From positions 1 to 46,498 of the forward strand of contig JAJCYU010000105.1 of NCBI GenBank assembly GCA_029262755.1: a stretch of DNA of 46,498 nucleotides, written 5' to 3'. The translations under genes were made by a program, and so were the position numbers. Each line of letters starts with the position of its first letter. The first letter of the stretch is position 1. This stretch comes from Anaerolineae bacterium (GTDB lineage: Bacteria > Chloroflexota > Anaerolineae > Epilineales > Epilineaceae). Below the pieces are notes generated by a model. It saw only the letters and a list, made by a program, of their open reading frames with translations. It did not search any database and was not told the DNA's origin. Positions 12,453-35,792 of the stretch are shown here, piece after piece.

Positions 12453-12523
12453 TGGGGGGTCGTCTAAGGGCAAGACGGCGGACTTTGAATCCGCTAATCC
12501 GGGTTCGAATCCCGGCCTCCCAG
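12453..12523 (+). tRNA. tRNA-Gln (anticodon UUG); CCA not encoded
   Basis: Acceptor TGGGGGG/CCTCCCA, anticodon arm GCGGA-CT-TTG-AA-TCCGC, T-arm CCGGG-TTCGAAT-CCCGG. TAGAAT -10 at 12436. Confidence 0.95.
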
Positions 12524-12778: not shown

Positions 12779-12805
12779 GGGAACATCGGCCCACCACGCG
12801 CGTAG
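12779..12805 (+). promoter_or_regulatory. ECF-type promoter, copy 1 (GGGAACATC-N14-GTAG)
   Basis: GGAAC-N17-GTAG upstream of lipoprotein 12880. The same motif occurs at 25454, 27630 and 28566. Confidence 0.7.
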
Positions 12806-12879: not shown

Positions 12880-13305
12880 ATGAATCCGCTTCGGATTATC
12901 TTCCTTGCCACGATCTTGCTTGCCTCCCTCGGCCTGACGGCCTGCTCCGGAAGCACCGATGTGGCGGGCTCAGCCTCGGACGCCGAGCAGGCGAGCAAAG
13001 GGGGCGCAGACGGAGAGCTCGTATGGCCGGTGGACAGCGCGAGGGCGATTCTCGACGCGATCGAGAACTTCGAGGACGACTCGATCAACATGGCGATGCT
13101 TGACGAAATCGCTTCGAAGCAGGACCTCAAGGCCGAGGTGGAGGAGCTGGACGGCTTCTTGCAGCGCATCGCGAGCGGAGATCTAGGATCCGGTCGAACG
13201 GGCAGCGAGGCCTTGGTCACCGTCGCGACGGGTATAACGCAGGGCAGGACCGTGCCCACCCCAGACCTGCGGGACGCGCTGCGGGAGATCATCGAGACCA
13301 AGTAG
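12880..13305 (+). CDS. Lipoprotein, short paralog of 25562 and 28804
   Basis: MNPLRIIFLATILLASLGLTAC-SGSTDVAGSA resembles MRTLKLFTMTMLLLASLGLAAC-TNTDVSGTA. One helical domain. Confidence 0.8.
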   Translation: MNPLRIIFLATILLASLGLTACSGSTDVAGSASDAEQASKGGADGELVWPVDSARAILDAIENFEDDSINMAMLDEIASKQDLKAEVEELDGFLQRIASGDLGSGRTGSEALVTVATGITQGRTVPTPDLRDALREIIETK

Positions 13306-13422
13306 CGGCTCGAGACGGTTCACGTCGCGATACGCGTGGACCATCCCCGAGTGTCCTGCCGGCCTGTTGATGGCCCGTCCCAGCACGGCAACCCAACACG
13401 CTGGCGTGAACATCGCATCAAC

Positions 13423-13460
13423 GCACAAAGCGGCGACCCGAGAAGGTCGCCGCTTTGTGC
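13423..13460. terminator. Bidirectional hairpin terminator, near-copy of the tRNA hairpin
   Basis: GCACAAAGCGGCGACC-cgagaa-GGTCGCCGCTTTGTGC. Confidence 0.7.
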
Positions 13461-13598
13461 GTGTACTAGCCATCGTGTCCAGGCTGCGCGCCCCTACAAC
13501 GTTCGCGTCCACCGCTCGACCATCGCACGTGGGGACGAGTAACGAGCGCGATACGCCATCGTTCTCGCGCTCGTTCATCGCGATCGCGCTCGTGCTTG

Positions 13599-15197
13599 CT
13601 ACGGGAGAGCGAAGCCGTCCGGGGCGATCAGGAGGGCGCTCCAGACGTAGCCGCCGTCCGTGCTTTCGGTGACGAAGATCATCGCTTCGTCGTTGCCCTC
13701 GGCTCCCCAGCCGCTGCTGTGCAGCACGGCGACGACCGGGACATCGGGGCCGAGCATGGCCATCGGGTCGACGCCGTCCAGCATCGCGCTGAGGTCGGTG
13801 TCGGGCGAAGAGAAGACGAGGGGCGAACTGCCCGCCAGGTAGACCGTCTTCAGCTGCCCCGCCAACTCGTCCGGCGTGATCAAGGACCATTCGCTGCGGT
13901 ACGGGCCGAGGCCGAAGGGGTCAGTGGCCAGCGCCGTCATCCCGGGGATGTCGCGCGCCAGCACCCGCGTTTCCAGGTTGTCGATGAACTCCTTGGCCGG
14001 CGCGTCGGAGGCGCCCGTCGCGTCGAACAGCCACGCCAGCGCGTCCTCGCCGCTCGTCGCGACGACAGGCAGCAGATCGCGATCGAAGCCGGCGAGCCGG
14101 GCGTCTGCCGGTAGCGCGAGCTCCGTGAGATCACCGGTCGAGGGGCGGTAGGCCATCGTGCGTGTCGGTTCGCCCATCACGGCCGTGTCGAGGAGCGCGA
14201 GGTCGGCCTCGACCCACGTCGCCGTGCCCAGGTCGGCGCCGATCATGCGCGGCTCGCTGTCGCCGGTCGGGTCGAGGAGATGGACAGCGCGTAGCGCCGG
14301 GTCGAACGTTACAAACTGCGCGGCGAGCAAGCGCCCGTCCGGGCTCCAGCTCGGCGCGGGGAACCAACCGCCAAAGCCCATCGGCTCGTAGGCTGCCAGG
14401 GTACGAGCCGTCCGCTCGACGAGATCGAAGAGGACGATCGCGATGTCGTCGTTGGCCACCAGCCAGACCAGCTTCGTGCCGTCCGGGCTGAACGCCGGGC
14501 TCGTGACGTAGCGCGTCTGAGCGGGCGCACCCTCGAAGGCCGGGATGTCGAAGGCCTTGATCGTGCCGTTGCGCCAAAGGTGGGGCACGCCTGCACGATC
14601 GAAGGCCAGGGTGCGGCCGTCGGGCGAGGCGTCGGGAGGCGAGGCCATGTTGTGATCGGGATCGAGGATCCCGACCGTTCCGGACTCAGTGTCGATCACG
14701 CTCAAATGGCCGATGTTGGGGCCGTCTTCCTCATCGGCCGTGTGCAGGCCGCACGCAACGCGAGTGCGATCGAGCCACGCGAAGCAGCGGACGAGACGGC
14801 CGGGGAGGTCGATTAGGCGCATTTCGCCCGACGCCACGTCGAGCATCGGCAGCTGATCGGAGCGGGCATCCGGCGCGACGGGGATTCCGCGATCGCCCCA
14901 AGGAGAAAAGAGCACGCCCGTATCGTGCAGCTGCTGGGCGACACCCGCCTCGGCGACGCGCCACATACCGGCGTCCGTCTGGAACCGCAGGCCGACCGGC
15001 GCCGCGTCATCCACGGTCAAGGTCACGATCGAGGCCGTGGGCGTGGCGGGCGGGTTGGTCGGCGCGGCGGCGGTTGTCGGCGCCGCTTCGGCGGCGGGCT
15101 CCGAAGGAGCGGAGGCCGGGGAGGGGCTGCAAGCCGCTGCGGACAGCACAAGAACGGTGCAAAGGGCGGATAGTACGTGCTTGCTCGGGACCATCAT
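13599..15197 (-). CDS. Lipoprotein with TolB/PD40-like beta-propeller plus shared C-terminal domain
   Basis: Lipobox LSAAAC, Pro/Ala/Thr linker and repeats ASPDGRTLAF, FSPDGTKLVW, WSPDGRLLA. GAGGAG RBS. Confidence 0.85.
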   Translation of the reverse strand: MMVPSKHVLSALCTVLVLSAAACSPSPASAPSEPAAEAAPTTAAAPTNPPATPTASIVTLTVDDAAPVGLRFQTDAGMWRVAEAGVAQQLHDTGVLFSPWGDRGIPVAPDARSDQLPMLDVASGEMRLIDLPGRLVRCFAWLDRTRVACGLHTADEEDGPNIGHLSVIDTESGTVGILDPDHNMASPPDASPDGRTLAFDRAGVPHLWRNGTIKAFDIPAFEGAPAQTRYVTSPAFSPDGTKLVWLVANDDIAIVLFDLVERTARTLAAYEPMGFGGWFPAPSWSPDGRLLAAQFVTFDPALRAVHLLDPTGDSEPRMIGADLGTATWVEADLALLDTAVMGEPTRTMAYRPSTGDLTELALPADARLAGFDRDLLPVVATSGEDALAWLFDATGASDAPAKEFIDNLETRVLARDIPGMTALATDPFGLGPYRSEWSLITPDELAGQLKTVYLAGSSPLVFSSPDTDLSAMLDGVDPMAMLGPDVPVVAVLHSSGWGAEGNDEAMIFVTESTDGGYVWSALLIAPDGFALP

Positions 15198-15572
15198 GGA
15201 AGAACCAGACTCCTCAGCATGTGCGTGCAGAAAGCACAGGGGGCAATGCTTGTCGGGGGCATCGCTTGTCGATCGTTGGTTTCGGCCGAAGCTTCGTGCG
15301 GCGACGTGTAGAACGGCGATGTCTAGAATGGCGTTGTCGTGCGAGACGATGCTCCGCATGCCGATCGGGTAACTTTACCTGCGCCGCCGGCAAGACGTTC
15401 GATTCTGGATGTGATTCAAGCGACATGTTTTTTCTCGAACCCGGCACCGTAGGGCTCGGTATACCGTCCGTGACCGGCGCGTCCCCATTCACGAGGCCGC
15501 GCGTCCCCCGGTCCGGGCCGCCTTCATAGTTCGTCCCTTGCAAGCCACCGCCCCGAAGACCGGAGACACACC

Positions 15573-16298
15573 ATGTTCAGCCGTCGCCATACATCGCCTC
15601 GAACGTTCAGTCGGCTGCCCGCCTTGTGCGCGGCGTTCGCCCTCGCATTCGCATTTGTGCTCGTCCCACGACCTGCCTCCGCCGACTGCGCGCCTACGGT
15701 GCCGTGTTTGTGCCCGGACACGGACGAGTTCGGCACGGATCAACCCATACACAGTGCCTTGATCGACGTGATTGGGAGCGATGTGGACGGTCACTTCGTA
15801 CGGATCGTTGCCATTTGGAGCGGCCGAACCGCCGGAACGGCACCCGCACAGGTCGGCGATGAGATCTGGGTGCTCGACGAGTCGTGGCACCCGCTGCGCC
15901 AAGCCTACATGCCCGAGGCCGGGCGACGCGCGTTGATGGCCTGGTCGGCAGGCGACGAGGCGGAAGACGGTTACCTTCTCTACCTGCTCGATCGACGCGA
16001 TCGCGTTCGGTGCGAGCAAGATTGCCGCTTCCGAATGGACGCCGCAGACGCCGCGCAAGCCATTCTCGCCGACGCCGCGACCTGCGCCGCCCTACGCGAC
16101 GCCGCGGGCTACGTGGAAGGCGATCCGGGTTGCCTGGACGTGGTCACGCCCATGGCGCTGCCGTACATCCTTGGCCACGCCGCCTGGTGCGAGTACGAGA
16201 CGAGCCTCCGCTACGGTGGCGTCCTTGGCATGATCGGGCTGCTCGGGGTGTTCGGGTGGCTGCAGCGGCGAAGGGTACGGTCTACGAGGCACGAGTAG
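15573..16298 (+). CDS. Secreted Cys-rich protein with C-terminal TM anchor
   Basis: GGAG RBS, signal peptide ending PASA-DC, 8 Cys in the mature part, C-terminal TM followed by RRR. Confidence 0.75.
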   Translation: MFSRRHTSPRTFSRLPALCAAFALAFAFVLVPRPASADCAPTVPCLCPDTDEFGTDQPIHSALIDVIGSDVDGHFVRIVAIWSGRTAGTAPAQVGDEIWVLDESWHPLRQAYMPEAGRRALMAWSAGDEAEDGYLLYLLDRRDRVRCEQDCRFRMDAADAAQAILADAATCAALRDAAGYVEGDPGCLDVVTPMALPYILGHAAWCEYETSLRYGGVLGMIGLLGVFGWLQRRRVRSTRHE

Positions 16299-16312
16299 GC
16301 CCCGCGCCCTGT

Positions 16313-19300
16313 TCACCGGCAGGGGATCGTGCGGCCCACCTCCTCGTAGATCGCACGGAGATCCGCCGCGGTCGGCGCGCGGAAGGCATGGGCCGGGCTG
16401 GCCGCGATCCGCACGAGCAGCGCATCGTCCACGTCATCGCCCAGGCCGATCGTGTACACGTCGATGCCCGCGGCGCGGGCGCGCTCGCCTTCGGTGATGA
16501 CGGGCGCGGGATCGTCCTGGCGGCCGTCCGAGAGCAGCACGACCATCGGCTTGCGGCGCGTGGAACTCGGCACGGCGCGTAGCAGGTCGATGGCGGCGGC
16601 CAGGCCGCGGTCGATACGGGTGCCGGGGCGCGTGTCGATGATCGCCAGCGCGGTACGTAGGCTGGCTGGATCCGAAGAGAGATCGTGGATCACACGCGGC
16701 GCATCGTCGAAGGTGACCAGGGCCGCGGCGTCTGCGCCGGGCGCAAGATCAAGGAGATCCAGGAAGGTGCCGACCGCAGCCGTGGCGGCATCGAGCTTGG
16801 CGCCCGTCATGCTCGACGAGCTGTCCAGGACAAGGGCGACGTCGAAACGCAGCGTGCCTGGCAGGCAGTGTCCGCGCATGGCCAGCGGCAGGAAGAGCGG
16901 CTTCGGCGGCGGTCCAGCAGTCGGGGTAGCTTGCGTCGGCGCGGGGGTGGGCTCGACCGTCGGGGCGGGCGTCGGCGTCGGGGTCGGCGGCGCCTCGCGC
17001 ACGGTTACGAAGGGCACGGGGAACACGATGCGGCCCGGCGCGCCCCAGCCGTCGGTGAAGGTCGCCTCGGCCCGCACATTGGTGGGCCAGCGGCCGATCT
17101 GCTGGGGTTCGACGTCGAGCGCGAACGCGCTTCGACCGTAGGGCAGGGCCGCTTGCGACCAGGAAACGTCCGCGCCCGCCGCCGAGCCTCCTGCCGAGAT
17201 CGAAGCCGGCACCAGACGCATGTTGGCCGGCAGGGTGTCGATCAGGTTCAGGTTGATAGCGAGGGCGCCGGGGAAGTGGTAGCGCACCATGCGGTGCTGC
17301 AAGCCCGCCCAGTCGAAGGTCACATCTGCGTCGCTGGAGGACAGAGGTTGCGCATCGGCCTCGTAGGTAGAGCCGTCGAAGCGGTAGCCGCGCCAGCCCG
17401 TGCGGTTGCCGTCATGGACGATGATCTGGATGCCGTCGTCGCGAATGTCGCCCGCCGCGATGGCGGCGTTGGGCCAGGGGCGGCAGTCGCCGTCGCGATA
17501 GGCCAGGTCGCGATTGCAGTAGAAGGCGTGGTAGACGACCATCACGCGGCGGCGTTCGGAGGGTGGCCCGAGGGTTCTGGCGGCCAGCTTCATGCCCTCG
17601 CGCAGCACCGGGTAGGGCTTGGCGCCGAAGCCGCAGCTTGGGCGGTCGTTGCGGATGAAGCAGCTTGGCGGCCAGCGGCGGGCGATGCGGGGGATCTCCG
17701 CTAGCAGGTCGGCTCGGTCGTGCGTCGGCTCGATCTCGACGCGCGAGTCGCGGAAGTAGCCGACGATGCCGACCCTGTGCTTGTCCATGTCGATCCGGCT
17801 GACCAAGCGGCGTAGTTCGCGGATCGTGTCGCCCGCGTTGTCCGGAACGCCGTTGGGCGGGTAGAAGAGGGTCACGATCATGATGTCGGACGGCGACTCT
17901 CCGATGCCACAGAAGCCGTCAAGCTCGAGTTGAACCGTCGTGTGCTCGCCTAGGGCCAGATCGTCGGGCGCGGCCGTCTTGTCGCCGCGCAACACGCAGG
18001 TAGCGTCGCTCGGCACGGGCAGCGCGTCGCTGCCGGGCGGTGCCGGTTCGAAGACCGCGACAACGCTGCCCTGCTCGTCCGCGACGTAGACACGGCCGAC
18101 CTCGTCGGCGGCGATGCCGCTGAGCGTCTGCGGGTCCGTGGCCGCGAAGGGGCGTCCGTCGAAGCGTGCGCTCACGCGGCCGTCCGGCTCATAGCGCTCG
18201 ACGTAGCCGCTCTCACGTAGGCCGAAGAGGTGGCCGCGCGTGCCTCCGGCGATCGCGCGCACGTCATCCGCGACCGAGATCGTGGGCAGCGACGAGCCGT
18301 CCGCCGCGAACACGATCACGAGATCGCGATGATCGTCCAGCACCAGCACGCGGCCGTCCGGGCCAACGCTAAGGTCCTCGTAGGGGTTGATCGCGTAGGT
18401 CGAGCTGGTGTCGTCCGGCAGATCCCAGCGCGTGAAGCGAGGGCTGCCGCCCGCGGCGAGCAGCAAGAGGTGCGGATCGTCCTTGCGCGTGACCGGTGCG
18501 CGTTCATAGACAAGGGCGTATACCGTGTCGTTGACGTCACGAAAGGCCAGGTCGACGAGCTTGAGATGGTTGGCGTTGTCGCGGCCGAGGTCCTCGTTGC
18601 GTTCCCTGGACTGGGTGCTGAAGCGTTGCGTCCATACGGGATCGATCACCTGGATCTGCTGGCCGTATTCGACGGTAGTCGTCGTGCGGAAGAAGCCGAT
18701 GCCGTGCTCGTCCTCGATCCACTGTGCCCCGCCCGGATCGGGTCCGCGCGGCCCGGGGGTGAGGCGGATCTGAGGGGTCGGCATGGGGGTCGGCGACTCG
18801 ACGGGCGTCGGCTCGGCCGCCGAGGCGGTGGGTGTGGCCCGGTCGTCTTCTCGGCCGGCGCGTTTGCCGCGGTGCTCCTTGATGTAATAGCCGAAGAGGG
18901 CATCTGTGGTCGCGGCGCCGTCCGCGCGATCCACCCGCAGACGGCGCGTGCTGCCCACACTGCGGCGCGTCGTGAGGCCGAGCGTGTCGATGACCGTGCC
19001 GTCCGGCTGGAAGTAGCGTGCCGTCCGCGTACTGTCGAGCACGAACACCCGCTCGGGCGCAGGCACGCTGAGGTGGCGCGGTGCCACGAGCCCGCCATCG
19101 GCACGCGCATTGACCGCGGAGAGGAAGATCGCATCCACCTGCGCAAGCCCTGCTTCTCGGTAGCGCACGACCGCCGCCGTCGTCGGCAGCGAGGTGTCCT
19201 TGCCACCGCGCGTGCTGTAACAGGGGCCGTAGTTCGGGTCGTAGGCTGCCACCGCGTAGAACTGCCCCAGCGCCGGCCGTATGAGCGGCACGCGCACGGT

Positions 19301-20311
19301 TGGCTTGCAGATGGTGCCGCCGCCGGCCGAAGTCGCAATCGTGTGCTCGAAGGCGCGCGGCTCGATGCGGCAGGCGCCGCTGCCGTCGCCCACCCAGATC
19401 GTGTCGCCTCCCAGCGCGTGCACGACACCGGCGCGGCATTGGTTGAAGGGCGGACCGAAGCCGGAAGTACCGTACTTCGGGTGCTGCAGGTTGTAGATCT
19501 TGCGGATGTCCGCGCCGTCTGCGCGCAAGTCGAAGAGCTGCACACGGGTCTCGTTCAGGTCGCCGATGGCCAGCGTGGCGCCGTCGGCGCTGACGGAGAG
19601 ATCGGACATGAGCGTGAAACGTCCTTCCTCCGTACCGTGGCCGCCGAAGGAGAAGAGGCGCGTGCCGGCACCATCCACGACCACCACCGTGTTCGTCTGC
19701 TTCTCGGCCACGTACACTCGCCCGTCCGGACCGACGGCGATCGACGCCCCGTCCAGATCTTCCCACGCACCAACGTAGCTGCCGTCCAGAGCGAAGATCA
19801 CCACCCGTTGCCCGCCGGTGTCCAGCACGTACAGTCGGTCTGCCGGCTCGTCCAATACCAATTTGCCGACCGCGCCCATACCGCCCGGGCCGCTGCCCAC
19901 GGTCCCGAAGGGCGGCAAGAAGGTCCCGTCCGGCAGCATGGTCAGGACGCCGCCGACGCCACGGTCCGCGATGAACACGCGCCCGTCCGCCGCCACGTCG
20001 AGGCCCACCGGATCGTCGATCGCCGACCGCCCGCCTGCGACGCGATCCGGCCAACGATCGATGCGGACGTAGGCTTCCAGTGCCGGAGCTTGAGCGTGCA
20101 CCGTGCGCGCCTTGGATCGCGCAGACTCCCTGAGGGAACTGCGCGCCGATGTTTGTCCGTTCGGACCGCTCAGCGCCACGCTCGACGCCGCAGACGAATC
20201 GTGCAAACGATCCGGAGCCACGAACGTAGCAAGAACCACCAGCAGGGCTACGCGCGCCATGCGCCACGCAGCATCGGTGACGGTGGGAACTGCGACGTGG
20301 TGACGATCCAT
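16313..20311 (-). CDS. Large secreted NHL-repeat beta-propeller / double VWA-domain protein
   Basis: NHL repeats (PVGLDVAADGRVFIAD, GIAADEVGRVYVAD) and PT-rich linkers. The C-terminal VWA has MIDAS DSSSS, T-RIDRGL, LLSDG and YTIGLG. GGAGG RBS. Confidence 0.9.
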   Translation of the reverse strand: MDRHHVAVPTVTDAAWRMARVALLVVLATFVAPDRLHDSSAASSVALSGPNGQTSARSSLRESARSKARTVHAQAPALEAYVRIDRWPDRVAGGRSAIDDPVGLDVAADGRVFIADRGVGGVLTMLPDGTFLPPFGTVGSGPGGMGAVGKLVLDEPADRLYVLDTGGQRVVIFALDGSYVGAWEDLDGASIAVGPDGRVYVAEKQTNTVVVVDGAGTRLFSFGGHGTEEGRFTLMSDLSVSADGATLAIGDLNETRVQLFDLRADGADIRKIYNLQHPKYGTSGFGPPFNQCRAGVVHALGGDTIWVGDGSGACRIEPRAFEHTIATSAGGGTICKPTVRVPLIRPALGQFYAVAAYDPNYGPCYSTRGGKDTSLPTTAAVVRYREAGLAQVDAIFLSAVNARADGGLVAPRHLSVPAPERVFVLDSTRTARYFQPDGTVIDTLGLTTRRSVGSTRRLRVDRADGAATTDALFGYYIKEHRGKRAGREDDRATPTASAAEPTPVESPTPMPTPQIRLTPGPRGPDPGGAQWIEDEHGIGFFRTTTTVEYGQQIQVIDPVWTQRFSTQSRERNEDLGRDNANHLKLVDLAFRDVNDTVYALVYERAPVTRKDDPHLLLLAAGGSPRFTRWDLPDDTSSTYAINPYEDLSVGPDGRVLVLDDHRDLVIVFAADGSSLPTISVADDVRAIAGGTRGHLFGLRESGYVERYEPDGRVSARFDGRPFAATDPQTLSGIAADEVGRVYVADEQGSVVAVFEPAPPGSDALPVPSDATCVLRGDKTAAPDDLALGEHTTVQLELDGFCGIGESPSDIMIVTLFYPPNGVPDNAGDTIRELRRLVSRIDMDKHRVGIVGYFRDSRVEIEPTHDRADLLAEIPRIARRWPPSCFIRNDRPSCGFGAKPYPVLREGMKLAARTLGPPSERRRVMVVYHAFYCNRDLAYRDGDCRPWPNAAIAAGDIRDDGIQIIVHDGNRTGWRGYRFDGSTYEADAQPLSSSDADVTFDWAGLQHRMVRYHFPGALAINLNLIDTLPANMRLVPASISAGGSAAGADVSWSQAALPYGRSAFALDVEPQQIGRWPTNVRAEATFTDGWGAPGRIVFPVPFVTVREAPPTPTPTPAPTVEPTPAPTQATPTAGPPPKPLFLPLAMRGHCLPGTLRFDVALVLDSSSSMTGAKLDAATAAVGTFLDLLDLAPGADAAALVTFDDAPRVIHDLSSDPASLRTALAIIDTRPGTRIDRGLAAAIDLLRAVPSSTRRKPMVVLLSDGRQDDPAPVITEGERARAAGIDVYTIGLGDDVDDALLVRIAASPAHAFRAPTAADLRAIYEEVGRTIPCR

Positions 20312-20553
20312 GGGTGGCCTCCCGTATCCAAGAGTGTCCGGCGCAAGGCGTGCGACACGGCGCCCACCTTCCTGGTTCCGTCGGCTCGTGGCCGGTATCC
20401 TTGCAAGTGTTGAACGCGGCCGCGCCGCCCGACTCTAAGTTTCGTCACGGATCGCGCGAGCCCTGGACGCGCTGCGGCCATAGTGTTAGCCTCGATCTAC
20501 CGGCATGCGAATGCAACTTCACCCCACGCACCCAACGATCGGAGCGACCTCTC

Positions 20554-21048
20554 ATGGCCCCCAGTTCCTCCCCTCCCCAGCCCGGCACGGGCTACGATGT
20601 CCAGCTCAAGACCTTGCCCTCGCAGACCGTCGTGACGATGCGCAAGGATACGACGCCCGAGGGCTTGCCCGAGGCCTACGGCGAGATGCTGCCCGCCACG
20701 CACCACGCGATCCAGGGTGCCGGCGGCGAGAGCGCCGGCCCGCCCTTCGGCGCGTACCACGCGTTCACGCCGGAGCACGTGGATCTGGAGGCCGGCGCGC
20801 CCGTGGTCGCCGCCATCGAGGTCGAAGAGCCCGTGCGCTGCTACCAACTGCCGGAACTGCATGTGGCCAGCCTGATGCATGAAGGGCCATACGAGGGCCT
20901 CGGCGACGCGCATGCCGCGCTCCAAGGCTGGGTCTCGCAGCAAGGGCACACGCGCAACGGCCCACCGATGGAGATCTACTGGACAGACCCGGGCGCCGAG
21001 CCGGATACGAGCAAGTGGCGCACGGAGCTCGTGCAGCCCGTCGAGTAG
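20554..21048 (+). CDS. GyrI-like small-molecule-binding domain protein
   Basis: GPPFGAYH, HEGPYEGLGDAH and MEIYWTDP...WRTEL motifs. Confidence 0.9.
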   Translation: MAPSSSPPQPGTGYDVQLKTLPSQTVVTMRKDTTPEGLPEAYGEMLPATHHAIQGAGGESAGPPFGAYHAFTPEHVDLEAGAPVVAAIEVEEPVRCYQLPELHVASLMHEGPYEGLGDAHAALQGWVSQQGHTRNGPPMEIYWTDPGAEPDTSKWRTELVQPVE

Positions 21049-21199
21049 TCGCGCGGCCCGTCGAGCACCCGCGCGGCCGGGTCGCGTCAGCGAGAGATCG
21101 GTCACCTAGGCGCGCGACACGTGGGATCGGCGCGTAGCCCGTTGCGAACACGGCCGGTAGGACAAAGCCGGCGTGTACTGCGTCCTGCATTCGGCCGCG

Positions 21200-22108: not shown

Positions 22109-22352
22109 GGTAGGCGCCCTTGGAGAGCGGGAGGGGAGAGGGAGAGGAAGAGGCAGCGACAACCAGTGCCGGCCGGGTAGCCGCGCTCACGGTACGAGCT
22201 CGCGCGAGGAGCGTCAATCGCAAAATTCGAGAGCGACGTGCGGTCTCGACAGCCCCGGGGGCCCCTGGTACCGTCGGCTCCTCGGCGCGCCGATATCCTC
22301 TTGCCGAGAAGTCCGGATCGTTTCCACCGACGACGCGAGCGAGTTGCCTGTA

Positions 22353-22925
22353 ATGTCCACATTCCGCAAGGCGGTACGAAATCTCGCTCCGACTGGTGAG
22401 GAGCGACGTACGATGATCATCGGCGCCGTCGTGCCCGCTCTGATCGGGCTGTTCGCAGTGATCGGCTTGGGCAGACTATCCGGCTACGATGCGCGCATCC
22501 TCTACAGTGCCGCCATCCCAAGCCTGCGGCTCCTCAGCTCCACGGTGAGCACGGCCGCGGCCACGATTCTGGCCCTGATGGTCACCGTGCTCAGCCTGAG
22601 TTCCAATGCCGATGCCGATCTACCCCTCGAACACTATCGCCGCATCGAGCGCATCGCGTTTCTATGCACCGCGGCGCTCATCGGCGCGTTGGTGTCTCTC
22701 CTGGTCTACGGTCTGCCCATCCAGGAATCCGACAAGATTGAAGGCTCGTGGTTCATCGTCGTCTACTTCCTCGGCTCGGCGACCGGCGCCAGTCTTGCGG
22801 CGATCATGATGGCCGTGATGCTGCAGCTGCTTGCCACGGTCAATCAGGTAATCCTTGCCTATCGACCGGACGTAGCGGAAGAGAACGCAGAGACGCGCAG
22901 TGCGAAGGACGCTTCGCCCGGATGA
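22353..22925 (+). CDS. Hypothetical integral membrane protein (4 TM)
   Basis: Four hydrophobic segments. The stop overlaps the next ATG. Start is uncertain. Confidence 0.7.
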   Translation: MSTFRKAVRNLAPTGEERRTMIIGAVVPALIGLFAVIGLGRLSGYDARILYSAAIPSLRLLSSTVSTAAATILALMVTVLSLSSNADADLPLEHYRRIERIAFLCTAALIGALVSLLVYGLPIQESDKIEGSWFIVVYFLGSATGASLAAIMMAVMLQLLATVNQVILAYRPDVAEENAETRSAKDASPG

Positions 22926-24799
22926 GGACTCGTCCGCAGGATGCATCCGACGATCGTACTCGCGCGGCGGGGTCGTTCGCCCGAGTGAGCGCCGGCGCTA
23001 CCGTGTGCGTCGCGCTTGTCGTTGTCGTGGGCGCCGTCTTGCGTCCTACGGATAGCGTCTCCGTTCCGAACACTGTTCAGTTCGCCGACGTTCCCGAAGA
23101 GGAGCAGGCAGGCTACCAGGTTCTCCACCAACTCGAGATCCCGGCCGAGGGTCCCGGCTACCACCAACAGCCACCACCCTACACCATCGACCGTTCCGCG
23201 GAGCTGGGCGATCGCTTCGACCGCGTCGCGTACCATCTTGCGCTCGAAGGGCGCGGTTTCGCGGGCACACGGACTCTGTGGGTCTCGATGGCCGCCTTCA
23301 CGGACACGTTGCGGCACCTCGGCTTGCCTGTCCTCTCGACCGGCGCGGTGTTCCAACGCGCCGTGCAAGAGCTCCATGTATACGGCAGCGAGACCGATCT
23401 GCCGCGCGGCGCGAAGTTGGGCGCGGGTGCAATCGAGTTCTGGCCGCACAACTACACGCCGATCAACGAGCGGCGCGTTCCAGGCGCGGATGACAGCGCC
23501 TACGACCACGGCGATCTCCCGGTCGATCCGCGGGAGGGCTACGGATCGCTGCAAGTGCATCACCCCGACTCGGCCACGGTCTTGTTCGCCTGGAACGGGT
23601 GGGGCAGCACCGGCGCCTCCGATCTGGGCATCGGCACGAGCCGCATGGGGCACGCGGACTGGACCTTCGCGCAGAACGCCGGCGACTACGCGCGGCGAAC
23701 GCTCACGATCCTCGTCCGCCCCACGACCCCGCTTTCGTCCACGTCGTCGATCACGTCTACGTTGCAGCTTTTCGCCCCCCGCGCCCACGCGGTACACCAG
23801 CGGGACGGCGCGAACCGTGCGCGCGTGCCGATCGTCGGGCGCGCGAGCGCGGGCGGGCTGACGGCGCAGGCACGCGCGCACCCGCTTGCGCCCGACGGCT
23901 CGCCGGCCGACCCCGCGACGCCGTGGCGGACGCTTGCGCTTGCGCCGGACGGACACATCCGGGATGCGCTCGTCCTCGATGCCGGATGGTACGCGGTGGA
24001 GGTCGGGCTCTTCGCATCGACGGATCGCGAGACGACGGGCGATCCGCTCGTGACGCGGCGGATCGGGCCGGTCGGCGTCGGTGAGGTTTTCATCTCGGCC
24101 GGCCAGTCCAACTCGGCCAACCACGGCATGCCGCAGAGCGAGCCGCGGGATCGGCGCGTCACGGCGGGCGGGCTCGACGGATGGCGGCCCGCGTGGGACC
24201 CGCAACCGGTCGCGACCGGTGACGGCGGCTCGCCATGGCCCGCGTTCGCGGACCGGATCGCCGCGGAACTCGACGTGCCGGTCGGTCTCGTGTCCGTCGG
24301 CTGGGGAGGCACGCAGGTCAGCCAGTGGCTGCCCAACGGCACGCTCTATCCGCGGCTGCGTGACGCCATCGAAGCGCTGCGGCCCAACGGCGCCCGTGCC
24401 GTATTGTGGCACCAAGGGGAGTCCGACGCCCAAGGTGGCACGGCGTCGGACGACTATGCACGCAGGTTGGCGGTCATCATCGCCGCGTCGCGCGATGACG
24501 CAGGGTTCGCGTTGCCGTGGGGCGTCGCGCGCGGCGGTTTCATGCCCGGCATCGTCCCTGAGTGGATCGCGGCCGTCGTCTCCGGCCAGGACGCGGTGAT
24601 CGCCGCGGACCCGGCCGTGTTCGCCGGCCCACCGACCGACGACCTCGTCGGCGCGGCCTGGAGGCACGACACGGTTCACTTCAACGCAGCGGGTCTCGAC
24701 GAACATGGTGAGCGTTGGGCAAGGCACGTGCTAGGCTGGCTCCGCGACGGTGGCCGATTGCCCGGCGGCGCCCCGACGGCGTTGCCACCGCCGGACTAG
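22922..24799 (+). CDS. Sialate O-acetylesterase (SASA/SGNH) domain protein with an extra N-terminal domain
   Basis: GVGEVFISAGQSNS, VPVGLV..GWGGT, WHQGESD and DTVH catalytic motifs. N-terminal TM/signal. Confidence 0.85.
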   Translation: MRTRPQDASDDRTRAAGSFARVSAGATVCVALVVVVGAVLRPTDSVSVPNTVQFADVPEEEQAGYQVLHQLEIPAEGPGYHQQPPPYTIDRSAELGDRFDRVAYHLALEGRGFAGTRTLWVSMAAFTDTLRHLGLPVLSTGAVFQRAVQELHVYGSETDLPRGAKLGAGAIEFWPHNYTPINERRVPGADDSAYDHGDLPVDPREGYGSLQVHHPDSATVLFAWNGWGSTGASDLGIGTSRMGHADWTFAQNAGDYARRTLTILVRPTTPLSSTSSITSTLQLFAPRAHAVHQRDGANRARVPIVGRASAGGLTAQARAHPLAPDGSPADPATPWRTLALAPDGHIRDALVLDAGWYAVEVGLFASTDRETTGDPLVTRRIGPVGVGEVFISAGQSNSANHGMPQSEPRDRRVTAGGLDGWRPAWDPQPVATGDGGSPWPAFADRIAAELDVPVGLVSVGWGGTQVSQWLPNGTLYPRLRDAIEALRPNGARAVLWHQGESDAQGGTASDDYARRLAVIIAASRDDAGFALPWGVARGGFMPGIVPEWIAAVVSGQDAVIAADPAVFAGPPTDDLVGAAWRHDTVHFNAAGLDEHGERWARHVLGWLRDGGRLPGGAPTALPPPD

Positions 24800-24883
24800 C
24801 ACAGTTCTCAGCCAGCCCTGCAACCCCCTCGGCGACCAACCGCACGTACGGACCGCGCACATGCCCTCGACCGGAGCACAGCC

Positions 24884-25480
24884 ATGTCTCGTCCCCAGCC
24901 CTCGCCGCTACCCCTTGTCGCCCTGTTTCGCGGCATCAACGTCGGTGGTCGCAACGTGCTGAAGATGGCGGATCTGCGGGATCTGCTACGCGGCTTGGGG
25001 CTGCACGACGTGCAGACCTACATCCAGAGCGGCAACGTTGTCTTTCGCATGGATGATGCGGACGCCCCTGGTAGTGCAGGCGCCGGCGAGCGCGACCTCG
25101 CGGCCTTACGTGCGCGTATCGAAGACGCCGTGGAGGCGGCGCACGGATTCCGGCCGCGGGTGCTTGTGCTTGGCGGAGAGGAATTGCTCAGCGCCATCGC
25201 CGCCAACCCCTATCCCGAAGCAATGGCGGAACCAAAGACGCTGCACCTCTTCTTCTTGGAACAGGTGGCCTCAGAAGCGGACCTCGACACGTTGAACGAA
25301 CTGCGGCGCGACGGCGAGCGCTTCGCGTTGTTTGAGCGTGTCTTCTATCTCCATGCCCCCGCGGGCATTGGGCGTTCGAAGCTTGCGTCGAAGGTCGAGC
25401 GCGCTCTGGGCGTGGCCGCGACAGCACGCAACGGACGCAGTGTGGCGGCCATCGGGAACATCGTGGCGCCTCCCGAGTAG
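24884..25480 (+). CDS. DUF1697 family protein
   Basis: VALFRGINVGG.N.LKMADLR, VQTYIQSGNVVF, ANPY, ATARN. Confidence 0.9.
   Translation: MSRPQPSPLPLVALFRGINVGGRNVLKMADLRDLLRGLGLHDVQTYIQSGNVVFRMDDADAPGSAGAGERDLAALRARIEDAVEAAHGFRPRVLVLGGEELLSAIAANPYPEAMAEPKTLHLFFLEQVASEADLDTLNELRRDGERFALFERVFYLHAPAGIGRSKLASKVERALGVAATARNGRSVAAIGNIVAPPE
25454..25480 (+). promoter_or_regulatory. ECF-type promoter, copy 2 (inside the 3' end of DUF1697)
   Basis: GGGAACATC-N14-GTAG. The GTAG includes the DUF1697 stop codon. Confidence 0.65.
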
Positions 25481-25561
25481 AAAGGCTGTCGCATACACAG
25501 AAGCACGGCGACACCGCCCGCACCAGCTCGTGACCTCGACACATTCAGGGAGGAACCACTC

Positions 25562-26527
25562 ATGCGCACGTTGAAGCTGTTCACCATGACCATGTTGTTG
25601 CTGGCTTCGTTGGGCCTCGCGGCCTGCACGAACACCGACGTCTCAGGTACGGCCGGCGACACGCCGCCTGAGGTTCCCGGCAAAGAGGTTCCGCCGGACC
25701 CCCAGAATCCGCCCGAGAAGCCCGGCGGCAACGTCGATCCCGGTTCCGGTAACACCGATCCCGGCCAAGAGAAGGGTGGCGCGAACGATCCCGGTAGCGG
25801 TGGCAACGCCGATGCCAGCAAGGAGATCACCCTCGAGAGCTTCCTTGCCCAGCTGAACCCGTCCCAGCGTCTGGACTTCGCCTACATCGAAGAGCACTGC
25901 GGAGCTCCGTGCCTCGAGGCGAGCGAAGCCTTGAACGCCTTCATCCAAGAGCTGTGCGCCACGAGCCCGGACGACTGCACCGCCGAGCTGCAGGCCATGC
26001 TCACCAAGCAGCGCACGACGACGCAGGTCCGCAACGATCAGGGTCTGGTCGGGCTGCCCAACGCGGACACCGTTTCCAAGCTCCTCCAGCAGTCGCAGGG
26101 CGGCGCCCCGGCGGGCGGCGGTGACACCAGTGGCGGCGACGCCGGCACAGGTGGCGGCGACACGGGCGGCCAGGCCGGTGGCGGCGACACCGGTGGCGAC
26201 ACCGGTGGCCAGGCCGGCGGCGGCGACAACAAGGGTGGCGACGAGGGCAAGGCGCTCCCGGCCGCGCCGGTAGCAGCAGCGGCGGCCGTGCAGGCGGTCA
26301 TCGAGAGCATCGGTCTTGACACGCTTAGCTGGAACGAGATCGCGGGTGCGGCCGACAAGGCGGACGTCGCAGCCCTGGCCACGTACTTCCAGCAGATCAC
26401 GGAGGGCGGCCTCGCGCTACCCGGCTGCGACGACTGCGTGGACACGATGAACGACCTGATGGGCGGCAACAACGTGGACGTGGATGACATCCGCAACCTG
26501 TTGATCGCCATCCAGACCATCGGCTGA
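25562..26527 (+). CDS. Two-domain Cys-containing lipoprotein, paralog A
   Basis: GGGAGG RBS, lipobox LAAC, Pro/Gly linker, 4-Cys domain, GGDT linker and CxxC domain. Confidence 0.9.
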   Translation: MRTLKLFTMTMLLLASLGLAACTNTDVSGTAGDTPPEVPGKEVPPDPQNPPEKPGGNVDPGSGNTDPGQEKGGANDPGSGGNADASKEITLESFLAQLNPSQRLDFAYIEEHCGAPCLEASEALNAFIQELCATSPDDCTAELQAMLTKQRTTTQVRNDQGLVGLPNADTVSKLLQQSQGGAPAGGGDTSGGDAGTGGGDTGGQAGGGDTGGDTGGQAGGGDNKGGDEGKALPAAPVAAAAAVQAVIESIGLDTLSWNEIAGAADKADVAALATYFQQITEGGLALPGCDDCVDTMNDLMGGNNVDVDDIRNLLIAIQTIG

Positions 26528-26598
26528 GGCAGTTCGAACACGAATCAATCGTGATCGCGGAGCAGCAGCCCACGATCGCAAGCGAACGATCAACGTGC

Positions 26599-26630
26599 GA
26601 GGAGGGCGTCCCCCCGGGGACGCCTTTCTC
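26599..26630. terminator. Hairpin downstream of paralog A
   Basis: GAGGAGGGCGTCCCC/GGGGACGCCTTTCTC imperfect inverted repeat. Confidence 0.55.
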
Positions 26631-26686
26631 GCGTCTCATCGCAGCCGGCGGCTCCAGTCTGCTCCACCGCCAGCGTCTACCGCCCA

Positions 26687-26851
26687 CCGCGCCAGTCGGG
26701 TTCGCGTTCTCCTCGCCGGGTCTATCCCTCGCCGCGCCAGTCGGGTTCGCGTTCGCCTCGCCGGGTCTATCCCTCGCCGCGCCAGTCGGGTTCGCGTTCG
26801 CCTCGACCGGTCTATCCCTCGCCGCGCCAGTCGGGTTCGCGTTCGCCTCGC
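26687..26851. repeat. 45-bp tandem repeat, about 3.6 copies
   Basis: Unit CGCGCCAGTCGGGTTCGCGTTCGCCTCGCCGGGTCTATCCCTCGC starting at 26688, 26733, 26778 and 26823. Confidence 0.95.
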
Positions 26852-27588
26852 ATGAACAGGGCGAGGTAGTCCGCCGAAGGGTGTCGGGTTGCGGCGATGG
26901 CACGCAGCACCGCGGCGTTGTCATAGGCCACGTACCGGCGCTCCAGCTCGTAGCCGCTTTCGTCGGCATGCAACAGGACGTACTTGGCCCGCAGGTCATC
27001 GCCGACAGGGTTGCTCACGCTGCCGAGGTTGACCGCCCGCACGCCGCCTACCGTCCGGTCCACCGGCCAATGGGTGTGCCCGGTGAAGACCAGGTCGGCA
27101 TCGGCGTCGGCCAGGAGGGCTCCAAGCTCTTCGTCGGACTGAGCCGGGTGGATCCCGGGTCCGTCGTCGGTGCCGGGTGCGGCGTGCACGCCAAGGACGC
27201 GCGTGCCGTCGGGCAGGGTTTCGCGCAGCTCGAGGGACAGGGACGCGAGGTGATCCAGGTGCGCGGTGCGCAGCGCACCGCGAGTCCAGCCGAAGCTCGC
27301 GCTGAGGCCGAGCAGATTGGCCAGACGATCGGGCCGGCTGCGCAGTACCGTGGCGGCGGTCTCGAGGTCCACGCCGTCCAGCGTCAGCCGGTCCGTGTTG
27401 CCGCGCGTGAAGCGCGCATTGGGCAGCGCGAGCAGGCGCTCCATGGCGCCGAGAGGGTCGTAGCCGAGCGCCGCAAGGTCACCGAGCACCCAATGGGCAT
27501 CGGCGCCCCCGGCCGCGGTGAGGTCGGCCAGGACGGCATCGAGGGCGATGGGATTGCCGTGCACGTCGGAGAGGATTGCGACTCGCAT
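26812..27588 (-). CDS. Metallophosphoesterase (calcineurin-like, YfcE/MJ0936 type)
   Basis: SDVHGN, LGDL, RGNTD, VHAAP, GHTH, NLGSV. Confidence 0.95.
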   Translation of the reverse strand: [258 protein letters not shown]

Positions 27589-27629
27589 GACGCGATGGTG
27601 CCCGAACTTGGCCGAATGCGCACATCGGT

Positions 27630-27656
27630 GGGAACATCTCCTAGAGGCGGGCGTAC
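27630..27656 (+). promoter_or_regulatory. ECF-type promoter, copy 3
   Basis: GGGAACATC-N14-GTAC upstream of 27772. Confidence 0.65.
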
Positions 27657-27771
27657 AAGGACCGTACCCATCATCAAACAGCCGTGGCCGCACGCGATCA
27701 CGGAGAGCCTTTCCAGCCCCCCAACGTGGCGGATCTTCGCGATCCCCGCGCCCCAAGATGGAGCCATCGGC

Positions 27772-28539
27772 ATGTCCGAGTCAGGCACACGCGGCGCGTT
27801 CGACCGCTGGCTCCCTGAGCCTTCGGAGGACGGAGGACAGCGCCCATCCGCGCCCGAACGCCTTGCGTCACGTGTCCTGGGCATGCTGCCTGTGGGCACA
27901 CCCGGCTTCTATCACGCCTTGGCCGAGATCGTCATCGACGCCTGGGCGGATCACGACCTGCGCGAGCATCTGCGCCGAGACCCGGCAGCAGCCATCGCAA
28001 AACGCGGGCTCGAGATTCCAGCCAATATCACCTTCGACATCGTCTCACCCTACGAAGCGACGTTGCCGGAAGGCACGCGCGTTGGACTGCCCCTTCCGCC
28101 CGCGAACGATCCCGTCACGACCACCGCGCTAGCACGGGCGGGCCTGGCGGACACGGCATGGGGCTGGTTGTTGAACGCCCCCGTCGAGTCCATGGACGCC
28201 GACGAAGATCCACTCGCAGCCGGATCCGCGTTCGCCGTTGCGGCGGCGCGTGTCCAAGAGAGAGAGCAGGCGCGTGCGCATCAGGATCACGCCGCGCGAT
28301 CTACAAACAAGCACACACCGTGGTTCGACCGTTTCCGTCGCACACCGCGACCGGTCTTCACGCTCGTCGGCGCCTTCGGCGCCGTGGTGCTGCTGATCTG
28401 GTCCGCGAACTCAGGAGGCATTCTCTCTGGAGATTCGACCTCCGGCACCGCCTCGGGCACCCTGTCCTGGACCTGGACCGCCATCTACCTCGCTGCGTTC
28501 GGCGCAGCCTGGTGGTGGATGGCCGGCCGGAAAGGATGA
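27772..28539 (+). CDS. Membrane-anchored protein with NHLP/nitrile-hydratase-alpha-leader-like domain
   Basis: GGAG RBS. LAEIVIDAWADHDLREHLRRDPAAAIAKRGLEIPANITFDIV...LPLPP, then two C-terminal TM helices. Confidence 0.7.
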   Translation: MSESGTRGAFDRWLPEPSEDGGQRPSAPERLASRVLGMLPVGTPGFYHALAEIVIDAWADHDLREHLRRDPAAAIAKRGLEIPANITFDIVSPYEATLPEGTRVGLPLPPANDPVTTTALARAGLADTAWGWLLNAPVESMDADEDPLAAGSAFAVAAARVQEREQARAHQDHAARSTNKHTPWFDRFRRTPRPVFTLVGAFGAVVLLIWSANSGGILSGDSTSGTASGTLSWTWTAIYLAAFGAAWWWMAGRKG

Positions 28540-28565
28540 CCACCAACCCTTAGGTAGCAATTCGT

Positions 28566-28592
28566 GGGAACATCACAGCAACCCACGAGTAG
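28566..28592 (+). promoter_or_regulatory. ECF-type promoter, copy 4
   Basis: GGGAACATC-N14-GTAG, followed by AAGGACTGTCGC, which resembles AAAGGCTGTCGC after copy 2. Confidence 0.7.
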
Positions 28593-28803
28593 AAGGACTG
28601 TCGCTAGCGCACGAGAGGCCCAGCAGCAGGGAGGAGATGGGTCGCAACCGGCCTACCGGGGCCACCGGAAGTAGCGGAGGCGAAGTATCACCCGGCATTT
28701 GGCGGCAGCGCACATTTTTCGGAGGAGGAACACCATGAGCAGCTCGAATCGATCAGCCCGATTGACTCGTGAACACGTCCCACAACGGGAGGGAGGCACC
28801 ACC

Positions 28804-29790
28804 ATGCGCGCTCTGAAGCTCTTCACCATGACCATGCTGCTGCTGGCTTCGTTGGGTCTCGCGGCCTGCACCGGCACCGACGTATCAGGCACGGCCGGCG
28901 ACACGCCGCCGGATGTCCCCGGCAAGGAGGTCCCGCCGGATCCCGAGAACCCGCCTGAGAAGCCCGGCGGCAACGTTGATCCCGGCGCCGGCAACACCGA
29001 TCCCGGCAACGAGAAGGAAGGCTCCAACGACCCCGGTAGCGGCAGCAACGCCGATGCCAGCAAGGAAATCACCCTTGAGAGCTTCCTTGCCCAGCTGAAC
29101 CCGTCCCAGCGTCTGGACTTCGCCTACATCGAAGAGCACTGCGGCGCACCGTGCCTCGAGGCGAGCGAAGCCCTCAACGCGTACATTCAAGAGTTGTGCG
29201 CATCGAGCCCGGATGACTGCACCCCCGAGCTGCAGGCGATGCTCACCAAGGAGCGCACGGCGACGCAGGTCCGCAACGACCAGGGTCTGGTCGGTCTACC
29301 GAACGCGGATGCCGTCAGCAAGCTCCTCCAGCAGTCGCAGGGCGGCGCCCCAGCGGGCGGCGGTGACACGAGCGGCGGCACCGGCAGCAGTGGCGGCGAC
29401 ACCGGTGGCGACACCGGCGGCGGCGACACGGGTGGCGGCGACACCGGTGGCGACACGGGTGGCCAGGCCGGCGGCGGCGACACCGGCGGCGACAAGGGCG
29501 GCGATGGCGACAAGACGATGCCCGCGGCTCCGGTGGCAGCAGCGGCAGCAGTGCAGGCCGTGGTCGAGACCCTCGGCCAGCCGAGCCTGACGTGGGAGAT
29601 GATCGCGGCGGCGGCCGACAAGGGCGACGTTGCAGCGCTGTCCGAGTACTTCGCAGCCTTGATCGACATGAACATGAGCGTGCCGGGTTGCGACGAGTGC
29701 GCGACGACGATGACGGCACTGCTCGACGGTGTGCCGGCTTCGGCAGAGAGCATCATGACGCTCCTCACGGCCGTCCAGGCCCAGAAGTAG
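28804..29790 (+). CDS. Two-domain Cys-containing lipoprotein, paralog B
   Basis: GGAGG RBS; colinear with 25562..26527. Alternative in-frame ATG at 28735. Confidence 0.9.
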   Translation: MRALKLFTMTMLLLASLGLAACTGTDVSGTAGDTPPDVPGKEVPPDPENPPEKPGGNVDPGAGNTDPGNEKEGSNDPGSGSNADASKEITLESFLAQLNPSQRLDFAYIEEHCGAPCLEASEALNAYIQELCASSPDDCTPELQAMLTKERTATQVRNDQGLVGLPNADAVSKLLQQSQGGAPAGGGDTSGGTGSSGGDTGGDTGGGDTGGGDTGGDTGGQAGGGDTGGDKGGDGDKTMPAAPVAAAAAVQAVVETLGQPSLTWEMIAAAADKGDVAALSEYFAALIDMNMSVPGCDECATTMTALLDGVPASAESIMTLLTAVQAQK

Positions 29791-29843: not shown

Positions 29844-29877
29844 CAAAAGGGGCGCCCTCACGGGCGCCCCTTTTTTG
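29844..29877. terminator. Bidirectional intrinsic terminator
   Basis: AAAAGGGGCGCCC-tcac-GGGCGCCCCTTTTTT. Confidence 0.9.
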
Positions 29878-33381: not shown

Positions 33382-33410
33382 TTGACAGAGGTACCCCGCC
33401 AAGGCACGAT
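33382..33410 (+). promoter_or_regulatory. Putative sigma70 promoter of the prsW-like operon
   Basis: Perfect TTGACA-N17-CACGAT. Confidence 0.5.
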
Positions 33411-35579: not shown

Positions 35580-35792
35580 ATGCGGTGCCACAAATGCGGT
35601 GAGGAGCCGATCGGGGTGTGCAAGTTCTGCGGGCGCGCGGTCTGCCCGGACTGTCATCAACCGATGCCCTTCATCTTGAACCTCTACGTGGGCGAAGACG
35701 CCGTGCCGAAGGCCATCGTCGTCGCCGACACGCTGTGGTGCCGCACCTGCCGGCCGCAGCCGGAGCCGATCCCAATGCCCGAGATCTCCTGA
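35580..35792 (+). CDS. Small Cys-rich zinc-finger protein (B-box-like)
   Basis: AGGAG RBS. CxxC-x7-CxxC-x4-CxxCH...CxxC. Confidence 0.8.
   Translation: MRCHKCGEEPIGVCKFCGRAVCPDCHQPMPFILNLYVGEDAVPKAIVVADTLWCRTCRPQPEPIPMPEIS

Follow-up and report, generated by a model that had tools for sequence, protein, structure and literature searches.

A modular surface-lipoprotein family with a candidate PrsW tag and a predicted ECF sigma factor regulon in a member of the Epilineaceae (Chloroflexota)

The contig JAJCYU010000105.1 of an Anaerolineae bacterium (Chloroflexota, family Epilineaceae; assembly GCA_029262755.1) was analysed over positions 1 to 46,498, and this stretch of 46,498 nt is referred to as the window; its genome, G000, is 84% complete. 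As judged from their sequences, the products of three genes, A (25562..26527, 321 aa), B (28804..29790, 328 aa) and 12880 (12880..13305, 141 aa), belong to an undescribed modular family of surface lipoproteins (here and below, features lie on the plus strand unless stated otherwise). These three genes and a gene for an anti-sigma-like membrane protein located between A and B (27772..28539) are very probably the output genes, i.e. the regulon, of a sigma factor of the extracytoplasmic function (ECF) type encoded at 37048..37635, their transcription being predicted. A promoter motif is common to these genes and a short tag near the lipid anchor of the lipoproteins recurs in the adjacent anti-sigma-like protein, so that the lipoproteins are likely switched on by the nearby sigma factor. 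By a narrow balance of the evidence, the tag is predicted to be the cutting site of a PrsW-family intramembrane protease encoded at 33409..34671.

The promoter motif, GGGAAC-N17-GTA, is of ECF type and was found before gene 12880 (12779..12804), before gene A (25454..25479, overlapping the end of a DUF1697 gene), before the anti-sigma-like gene (27630..27655) and before gene B (28566..28591). With a spacer of 17 or 18 nt, the four copies in the window compare with 0.26 expected, and none of 100 shuffles reached four. In the fetched loci, 16 of 17 family genes and 7 of 11 genes homologous to the one at 27772 have the motif no more than 350 nt upstream, as opposed to only 2 of 158 other genes of the same loci, both of them prsW; genome-wide, it precedes 8 of 3380 called genes. 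The promoter is also kept where a lipoprotein gene sits apart from the cluster (L010 and L031). A longer form present in G000, GGGAACATC-N14-GTA, has five copies in the genome and none in the Markov null, and the fifth site precedes a lipoprotein gene on another contig, C80. A weight matrix built from 20 sites of relatives ranked the site of gene A first and that of C80 second, but its threshold excluded the remaining three sites of the window, and plain consensus counts were therefore preferred. The -10 element of SigW of Bacillus subtilis is CGTA. The -35 part of the motif matches the -35 consensus of Escherichia coli SigE, GGAACTT (PMC6713349).

The tag follows the pattern D-[VLMS]-[SA]-G-[STA]-A just past the lipid Cys, and reads DVSGTA in A (25637..25654) and B (28879..28896) and DVAGSA in gene 12880 (12958..12975). 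All three genes are open frames with a GC content at third codon positions of 0.82-0.85, and their products start with a signal peptide and a lipobox ending in Cys22. Protein A continues with the tag, a P/G linker, an N-domain (residues 88-179; 25823..26098) with four conserved Cys, a GGDT linker and a helical C-domain (residues 234-320; 26261..26521), and the product of gene 12880 has, behind the tag, a single Cys-free domain of the C type. Only four columns are invariant among 18 aligned members: A21 and C22 of the lipobox (LGLAAC or LGLTAC) and G29 and A31 of the tag. A looser form of the tag was found in 46 of 60 signal-peptide-bearing library members, and in 34 of 48 of those outside the seed. 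In G000, a pattern scan gave 66 candidate lipoproteins, four of which carry the tag and four the promoter, and these are the identical four. The C80 lipoprotein (L051; gene start at contig position 1310, minus strand; about 145 aa) combines the promoter and a DLSGAA tag with a body that is unrelated to the family and has no NCBIfam match; it was reached via the promoter alone and thus constitutes an independent case of promoter-tag coupling and a candidate fifth member of the regulon. Lipoproteins which by eye resemble CAP-domain proteins (L053:5028-6035 and P0082) also bear the tag after the lipid Cys. A role of the tag in O-glycosylation was rejected, since several loops of the anti-sigma-like proteins contain no Ser or Thr in it (LAGAA).

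The anti-sigma-like protein encoded at 27772..28539 (255 aa) is composed of a short ASD-like N-terminus, a domain resembling NHLP leaders and two C-terminal transmembrane (TM) helices, the loop of which contains the tag variant TSGTA (28438..28452). Homologues were found in 10 of 17 family genomes, adjoining the lipoprotein gene, the ECF gene or the prsW-minD-Zn-HTH-cNMP operon; in other families of Anaerolineae, shorter homologues that lack the NHLP insert immediately follow ECF genes. With a profile of the short form the top PDB match was the anti-sigma factor RskA (E 0.075), and two short homologues gave weak matches to NCBIfam anti-sigma models (NF052375, E 0.003-0.006, far below cut-off). 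Topology and synteny fit an anti-sigma role as well, and the two-helix protein is probably the anti-sigma factor of the system. The strict tag is present in 11 of 22 inter-helix loops of these kin proteins, the other 11 being small-residue variants by eye, and in only 8 of 765 comparable inter-helix loops of G000. One hairpin copy reads DLSGAAAG, and the C80 lipoprotein has the matching DLSGAA. G000 has 26 other ECF-like matches, and by eye none of the genes that follow them ends in such a hairpin.

The middle domain of this protein matches the NHLP leader weakly (E 2e-6, 27.4 bits against a cut-off of 50.9; E 8e-8 in a relative) and is missing from many of its homologues. The domain is thus reminiscent of the precursors of ribosomally synthesised and post-translationally modified peptides (RiPPs) with NHLP leaders (TIGR03793, Os1348/NF038399), but unlike in these it is followed by two TM helices and by no core peptide. 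An NHLP RiPP cluster was rejected for this locus: the leader is below cut-off, two TM helices take the place of a Cys/Ser/Thr core, and no modifying enzyme was recognised alongside. In genome G077, a soluble protein behind an ECF gene (L153:1234-1734) has by eye an anti-sigma-like N-terminus and an NHLP/Os1348-like segment and no TM helix, which suggests a wider use of this domain in anti-sigma proteins.

The PrsW protease is encoded by the first gene of an apparent operon, in which it is followed by a MinD/ParA-type ATPase (34685..35428), a small Cys/His protein that is likely zinc-binding (35580..35792), a winged-HTH-like protein (35814..36266), a protein with a cNMP-binding domain (36259..36978) and the ECF sigma factor, so that the window holds the complete set from prsW to the ECF gene. 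PrsW shows the motifs EExxK, EN, H and HxxxN and is extended at its C-terminus; it scores 90 bits for PF13367 against a cut-off of 23.5 and stays under the equivalog cut-off of NF033739; the catalytic residues E96, E97, K100, E134, N135, H162, H199 and N203 are invariant in 19 sequences. The sigma factor is SigW/RpoE-like, below equivalog cut-offs, and consists of the sigma70 r2 and r4_2 domains only; by synteny, it is likely the reader of the promoter motif. Site-2 proteases of the M50 type were found in G000.

One PrsW clade, matched at E below 1e-50, was found in 16 of 201 genomes of the class. Of 15 regions around it, eight hold an ECF gene and a tagged hairpin; in two others, a TM-anchored protein carries an LFG[TA] variant next to the helix. 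An unrelated surface protein beside PrsW (L136) has GGNLSGSAVE after its N-terminal helix, and the same string occurs in a family lipoprotein of genome G013; beta-propeller proteins beside PrsW (L095 and L096) have VSG[TA]AEA before the C-terminal helix. A profile of the hairpin matched 13 of the 201 genomes. Three held-out hairpin matches lie in genomes with the PrsW clade (partial in G000, near full-length and tagged in G168 and G223), and two partial profile matches without hairpin lie in genomes lacking it. Held-out hairpins were thus found in 3 of 8 non-seed genomes with the clade versus 0 of 185 without, the kin genomes not being independent.

These findings can be combined in a circuit. 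The two-helix protein would hold the sigma factor; PrsW, possibly gated by its cNMP, MinD, Zn and HTH partners, as the operon suggests, would cut the tag in the outer loop of the anti-sigma factor, and by analogy with SigW a site-2 protease would complete the cleavage. The freed sigma factor would then transcribe the anti-sigma gene and the genes of the tagged lipoproteins. In the latter, PrsW would cut the same tag a few residues past the lipid anchor and shed the payload of N- and C-domains, and the tag of the lipoproteins would compete with the anti-sigma factor for PrsW, damping the response. In B. subtilis, PrsW cuts RsiW between Ala168 and Ser169 (PMC8767453), and a site-2 protease acts after this cut (PMC8844934, PMC10202637). 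The complete circuit, i.e. ECF-regulated tagged lipoproteins that are cut at the tag by PrsW, shed and in competition with the anti-sigma factor, is as a whole about evenly balanced between holding and failing. Its extension, in which the Anaerolineae PrsW clade is a tag-reading sheddase, [LVMI]-[SAF]-G-[STA]-A marks anti-sigma loops, lipoproteins and TM-anchored proteins, and one protease both activates the ECF factor and sheds the surface proteins that this factor induces and that titrate the protease, is put forward tentatively and falls a little short of an even balance.

Several observations weigh against this interpretation. The short motif GGGAAC-N17-GTA is not enriched genome-wide (13 copies versus 12 in the null), the prsW-ECF operon of the window has no exact copy of it, and the tagged CAP-domain lipoprotein of L053 is without a matching promoter. 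The tag pattern was defined on these same proteins and the profile of the library search included the tag. Even the loose pattern is absent from 14 of 60 family members; seven of these are of the N-only type, and several of the remainder have a near variant such as PGAAV. Homology to anti-sigma factors is weak and under every cut-off, and the copy in the window has a shortened N-terminus and a variant tag. Of the 13 genomes matched by the hairpin profile, 8 were seeds. Finally, 5 of the 15 PrsW regions have neither hairpin nor tagged neighbour (one reaches a contig edge), and 19 of 29 Zn-protein loci with PrsW show no ECF gene within the fetched flank, so that PrsW occurs in contexts without the proposed circuit.

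Some further copies of the cluster are to be mentioned here. A second prsW-minD-Zn-HTH-cNMP-ECF cluster is present in G013, G007 and G015 (L129-L131), with a GGAAC-N17/18-GTA motif before the anti-sigma-like gene. Genome G007 (96% complete) gave two weak profile matches to the lipoprotein family, the better one being a C-only member (L052:4203-4652), which is the sole member, lies in the syntenic place and has a degenerate promoter; no NHLP-type hairpin was found in this genome, and its second PrsW-ECF cluster is kept with a short tagged hairpin of its own. A DsbD/thioredoxin gene adjoins the ECF or lipoprotein gene in genus g8 only (L022:857-2836, L026 and L052). The module of Zn protein, HTH, MinD and cNMP proteins (L058-L123) is found widely in Anaerolineae, in many cases without PrsW; its small Zn protein, which reaches Actinomycetota, Omnitrophota, Deltaproteobacteria and Clostridia, is not covered by any family above cut-off. 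An actinobacterial PrsW-Zn-HTH set (L105:5672-15152) stands by eye beside a leader-peptide-like gene and genes of a bacteriocin-type ABC transporter.

Under a different explanation, which appears unlikely, the regulon is the same and the tag is a docking site that stays uncut: the lipoprotein would plug PrsW or shield the anti-sigma loop and give way once its disulfide-bonded N-domain detects a ligand or a defect of the envelope or of oxidative folding, much as RseB guards RseA. The same promoter and tag data speak for this, the N-domain Cys are near-invariant, negative regulators are common within their own ECF regulon, and RseB masks the site-1 cut (PMC10202637). However, the tag occurs on unrelated bodies, namely the C80 lipoprotein, the CAP-domain lipoproteins, beta-propellers at both anchors and the surface protein of L136, and is therefore better explained as a general processing signal than by a single sensor; moreover, C-only members keep the tag without an N-domain.

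It is distinctly unlikely that a type I signal peptidase, or an enzyme for Cys-less lipobox-like sequences, reads the tag and that PrsW is a mere neighbour. The tag lies about 8-15 residues past the helix or 5-10 past the lipid Cys, which speaks against a signal peptidase, as this distance exceeds the usual spacing for these enzymes. On the other side, G-x-A fits the small-x-small rule at positions -3 and -1, as for RsiV and RsiP, and signal peptidases serve as site-1 proteases (both PMC8844934). L-[SA]-[GA] in turn resembles the Leu-Ala/Ser-Gly/Ala of a lipobox (PMC8767453), and PrsW clusters are often without an ECF module. Against either enzyme, tagged hairpins were found only in genomes with the PrsW clade.

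Among known systems, the proposed cascade is a variant of PrsW-RsiW-SigW (PMC10202637, PMC8844934 and the supplement of PMC7826278). As in PrsW-RsiW-SigW of B. subtilis and PrsW-RsiT-CsfT of Clostridioides difficile, a PrsW with intact motifs, a SigW/RpoE-like ECF factor and a membrane-bound anti-sigma candidate occur together, an ECF-type promoter precedes the anti-sigma gene, and M50 proteases are present in the genome. Unlike in these systems, the anti-sigma candidate has two TM helices, a short loop and an insert resembling NHLP leaders; PrsW has a C-terminal extension and is encoded together with the MinD, Zn, HTH and cNMP proteins in one operon; GGGAAC takes the place of TGAAAC as the -35 element; and the lipoproteins of the regulon repeat the tag of the anti-sigma loop. 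RsiV and RsiP likewise undergo a site-1 cut close to a TM helix, at a small-x-small site (PMC8844934), the corresponding cut being a prediction here; in contrast to these proteins, which have a large outer domain and the site at the end of the helix, the tag lies further out and tracks the PrsW clade. For polymorphic toxins, Zhang et al. (2012; PMC3482391) proposed from genomics that PrsW releases a membrane payload. In that case PrsW and a toxin domain are fused in cis, whereas here PrsW would act in trans on separate tagged proteins in which no toxin domain was recognised; shedding has its nearest precedent in this proposal. The supplement of PMC7826278 may contain a matching ECF group.

Within the open-access literature searched, the lipoprotein family, the two-helix anti-sigma factor with its NHLP insert and the tag common to anti-sigma factor and regulon are new, and no description of a tag repeated between an anti-sigma factor and members of its regulon was found there. 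In the literature consulted, PrsW acts on anti-sigma factors such as RsiW, and no statement of a recognition motif was found there. The locus offers a candidate motif and a natural substrate panel with lipid, N-terminal helix and helical hairpin anchors, a promoter, and a small regulon with five exact sites found in the 84% complete genome, which together make the specificity of PrsW directly testable in a heterologous host. If the interpretation is true, it would provide a sequence-defined recognition motif of PrsW and a new anchor-release signal. It would further suggest a feedback design in which the targets of a sigma factor mimic the cut site of its anti-sigma factor, and offer an entry point to the way in which filamentous Chloroflexota of sludge and biofilms release surface proteins under regulation.

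The lipoprotein family itself was not recognised by any database searched, in agreement with the preliminary description of the window, which had called it an unrecognised family with one- and two-domain members; one- and multi-domain members were indeed found. The common promoter, the tag near the lipid anchor, the anti-sigma-like gene and the PrsW/ECF cluster had no place in that description. The bodies of A and B gave no Pfam, NCBIfam or PDB-sequence family, and gene 12880 only matches to the signal region (E 0.18-0.25). Matches to P0001 occur in 4 of 61 related genomes, all of the family of the window, and in none of 44 genomes of other families; P0003 as lone query found nothing in 16 family genomes, and a profile search matched 12 of 17 family genomes. 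No match to an N-domain profile was obtained in 300 other genomes of the phylum, one of them from the same family. A search of 1.84 billion proteins yielded 80 matches at E up to 0.001; 64 pass the domain thresholds, 60 of these with signal peptide, and the weakest of the 80 are unrelated lipoproteins caught by the signal region. The cluster and two family genes are also present in Candidatus Epilinea brevis (L062), and PMC10746286 lists the genus Epilinea with Epilineaceae, a proposed family of Chloroflexota. The architectures observed are N, C, NC, CN, CNC, NCC, NNN and CC.

The four Cys of the N-domain are kept in 51-54 of 54 domains, and in protein A they likely form two disulfides. No Cys at all is present in 37 of 52 C-domains. 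The CxxC of A and B is accordingly a trait of their sub-lineage, and the earlier suggestion of metal or redox sensing via CxxC does not hold as a function of the family. LspA was found in G000, and VKOR was not found in this 84% complete genome. The AlphaFold model shows two confident helical domains with disordered linkers (the N-domain alone at pLDDT 90). For neither domain was a usable match obtained in Pfam, NCBIfam, PDB sequences, Foldseek, VIA-align or ESM Atlas: the best structural hit had Z 3.7 for the N-domain (rmsd 4.6, 75 residues aligned) and Z 6.3 for the C-domain (rmsd 4.0, 91 aligned), the latter among generic helical matches, and the best Foldseek E-values were 1.1-2.0. Absence of fold matches is no proof of a new fold; the N-domain may be a new disulfide-bonded one, and our best guess for both domains is small disulfide-stabilised binding modules. 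A resemblance between the two domains had been noted as well. It is real in that the segments named at the time are aligned by hhalign (54 N- versus 52 C-domains) and in that helices and short strands follow a similar order in the model, but it is weak: the probability was 12.9%, with E 0.002 and a score of 19.2, whereas reversed columns scored 10.0 and none of 29 shuffles exceeded 9.2. The domains may share a distant origin.

Genes A and B are tandem paralogs. Their near-identity across the four-Cys domain was borne out, with 6 differences in the 95-residue N-domain and 7 in a stretch of 112 residues, and so were the identity at only 31 of the last 75 residues, the common W, DKxDVAAL..YF and PGCDxC of the distal parts and the different copy numbers of the GGDT linkers. 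Synonymous divergence (dS) is 0.48 in the signal, 0.46 in the first linker and 0.32 in the N-domain, and the last 75 codons have dS 0.78 and a nonsynonymous divergence (dN) of 0.63. Silent divergence is thus substantial along the whole length, which makes the pair an older duplicate and not a fresh copy, and with dS of 0.3-0.5 in the 5' part the recent gene conversion once envisaged there is unsupported. In the 5' part 25 of 98 four-fold sites differ, and in the 3' part 16 of 29 (p=0.006). A run of 68 nt is identical (29077..29144 in B, corresponding to 25835-25902; p=0.017) and may be a short conversion tract. Both observations suggest some homogenisation of the 5' part, and an older or partial event is plausible.

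Gene 12880 had been described as having the same signal and lipobox and one Cys-free domain, and this domain is related specifically to the C-domain: positions 199-289 of the A1 profile match it (E 1e-3), it shows 28% identity to P0004 over 120 aa (BLASTP), and it groups in a supported clade with the C-domains of A and B. The C-domain tree joins A and B as sisters (98/92); the branch leading to A measures 0.07 and that leading to B 0.78, so that most of the change occurred in B. The C-domain tree and the N-domain tree, the latter a quick version, both rest on few columns; rows below the domain score or length thresholds and three spurious matches (P0069, P0071 and P0078) were excluded. The view that the distal domains diversify thus stands with respect to the faster change of the C-domain, and positive selection is unsupported, dN/dS between A and B being about 0.8 and near saturation. 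It is very unlikely that the proteins are solely a diversifying surface family for ligand binding, immunity or metal/redox sensing with a non-regulatory N-terminal segment. The shuffled architectures and the long branch of the C-domain of B are in line with this explanation, which can still describe the job of the payload; however, it accounts neither for the coupling of promoter and tag nor for the presence of the tag in the anti-sigma loop, the CxxC is missing from the 37 Cys-free C-domains, dN/dS is below 1, and no toxin gene was recognised beside A or B.

An assembly chimera or a mis-collapsed repeat is scarcely credible as the origin of A and B: the contigs of run X1 do not bridge the GGDT linker of A and the pairing of 5' and 3' halves was not directly seen, but 63 differences are scattered over the first 576 nt, separate X1 contigs tie each 5' half to its own upstream gene with depth higher on identical stretches, run X2 from another study contains diverged pieces of both copies, tandem paralogs also exist in G008 and G011, and public contigs thus place both copies in their own flanks.

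Gene B is followed by a likely terminator (29845..29876), a GC-rich hairpin with a subsequent T run, which was read from the sequence and was not listed by the scanner. On the minus strand, a metallophosphoesterase gene (26812-27588) and an EEP-nuclease and PLD/VTT pair (30053-33234) break up the cluster. They look like later insertions, since the lipoprotein gene of G009, G013 and G015 directly precedes prsW. About four tandem 45-nt units (26675-26851) separate gene A from the 3' end of the metallophosphoesterase gene. A tRNA-Gln gene (12453-12523) is located directly 5' of the promoter of gene 12880. Two other likely lipoproteins are encoded on either side of this gene (11530-12201 and 13599-15197, minus strand) and by eye have a C-terminal domain in common (PFG.G.YRSEW ... 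LHS.GWG ... WSA); the former has no Pfam match and the latter a weak match to PD40 repeats. A large surface protein with NHL repeats and a VWA domain (16313-20311, minus strand) contains an LFLPLA-type segment, which recurs in many secreted proteins of relatives. An intergenic repeat with a period of 60 nt is present at 42766-43040, in three near-full copies plus partial ones.

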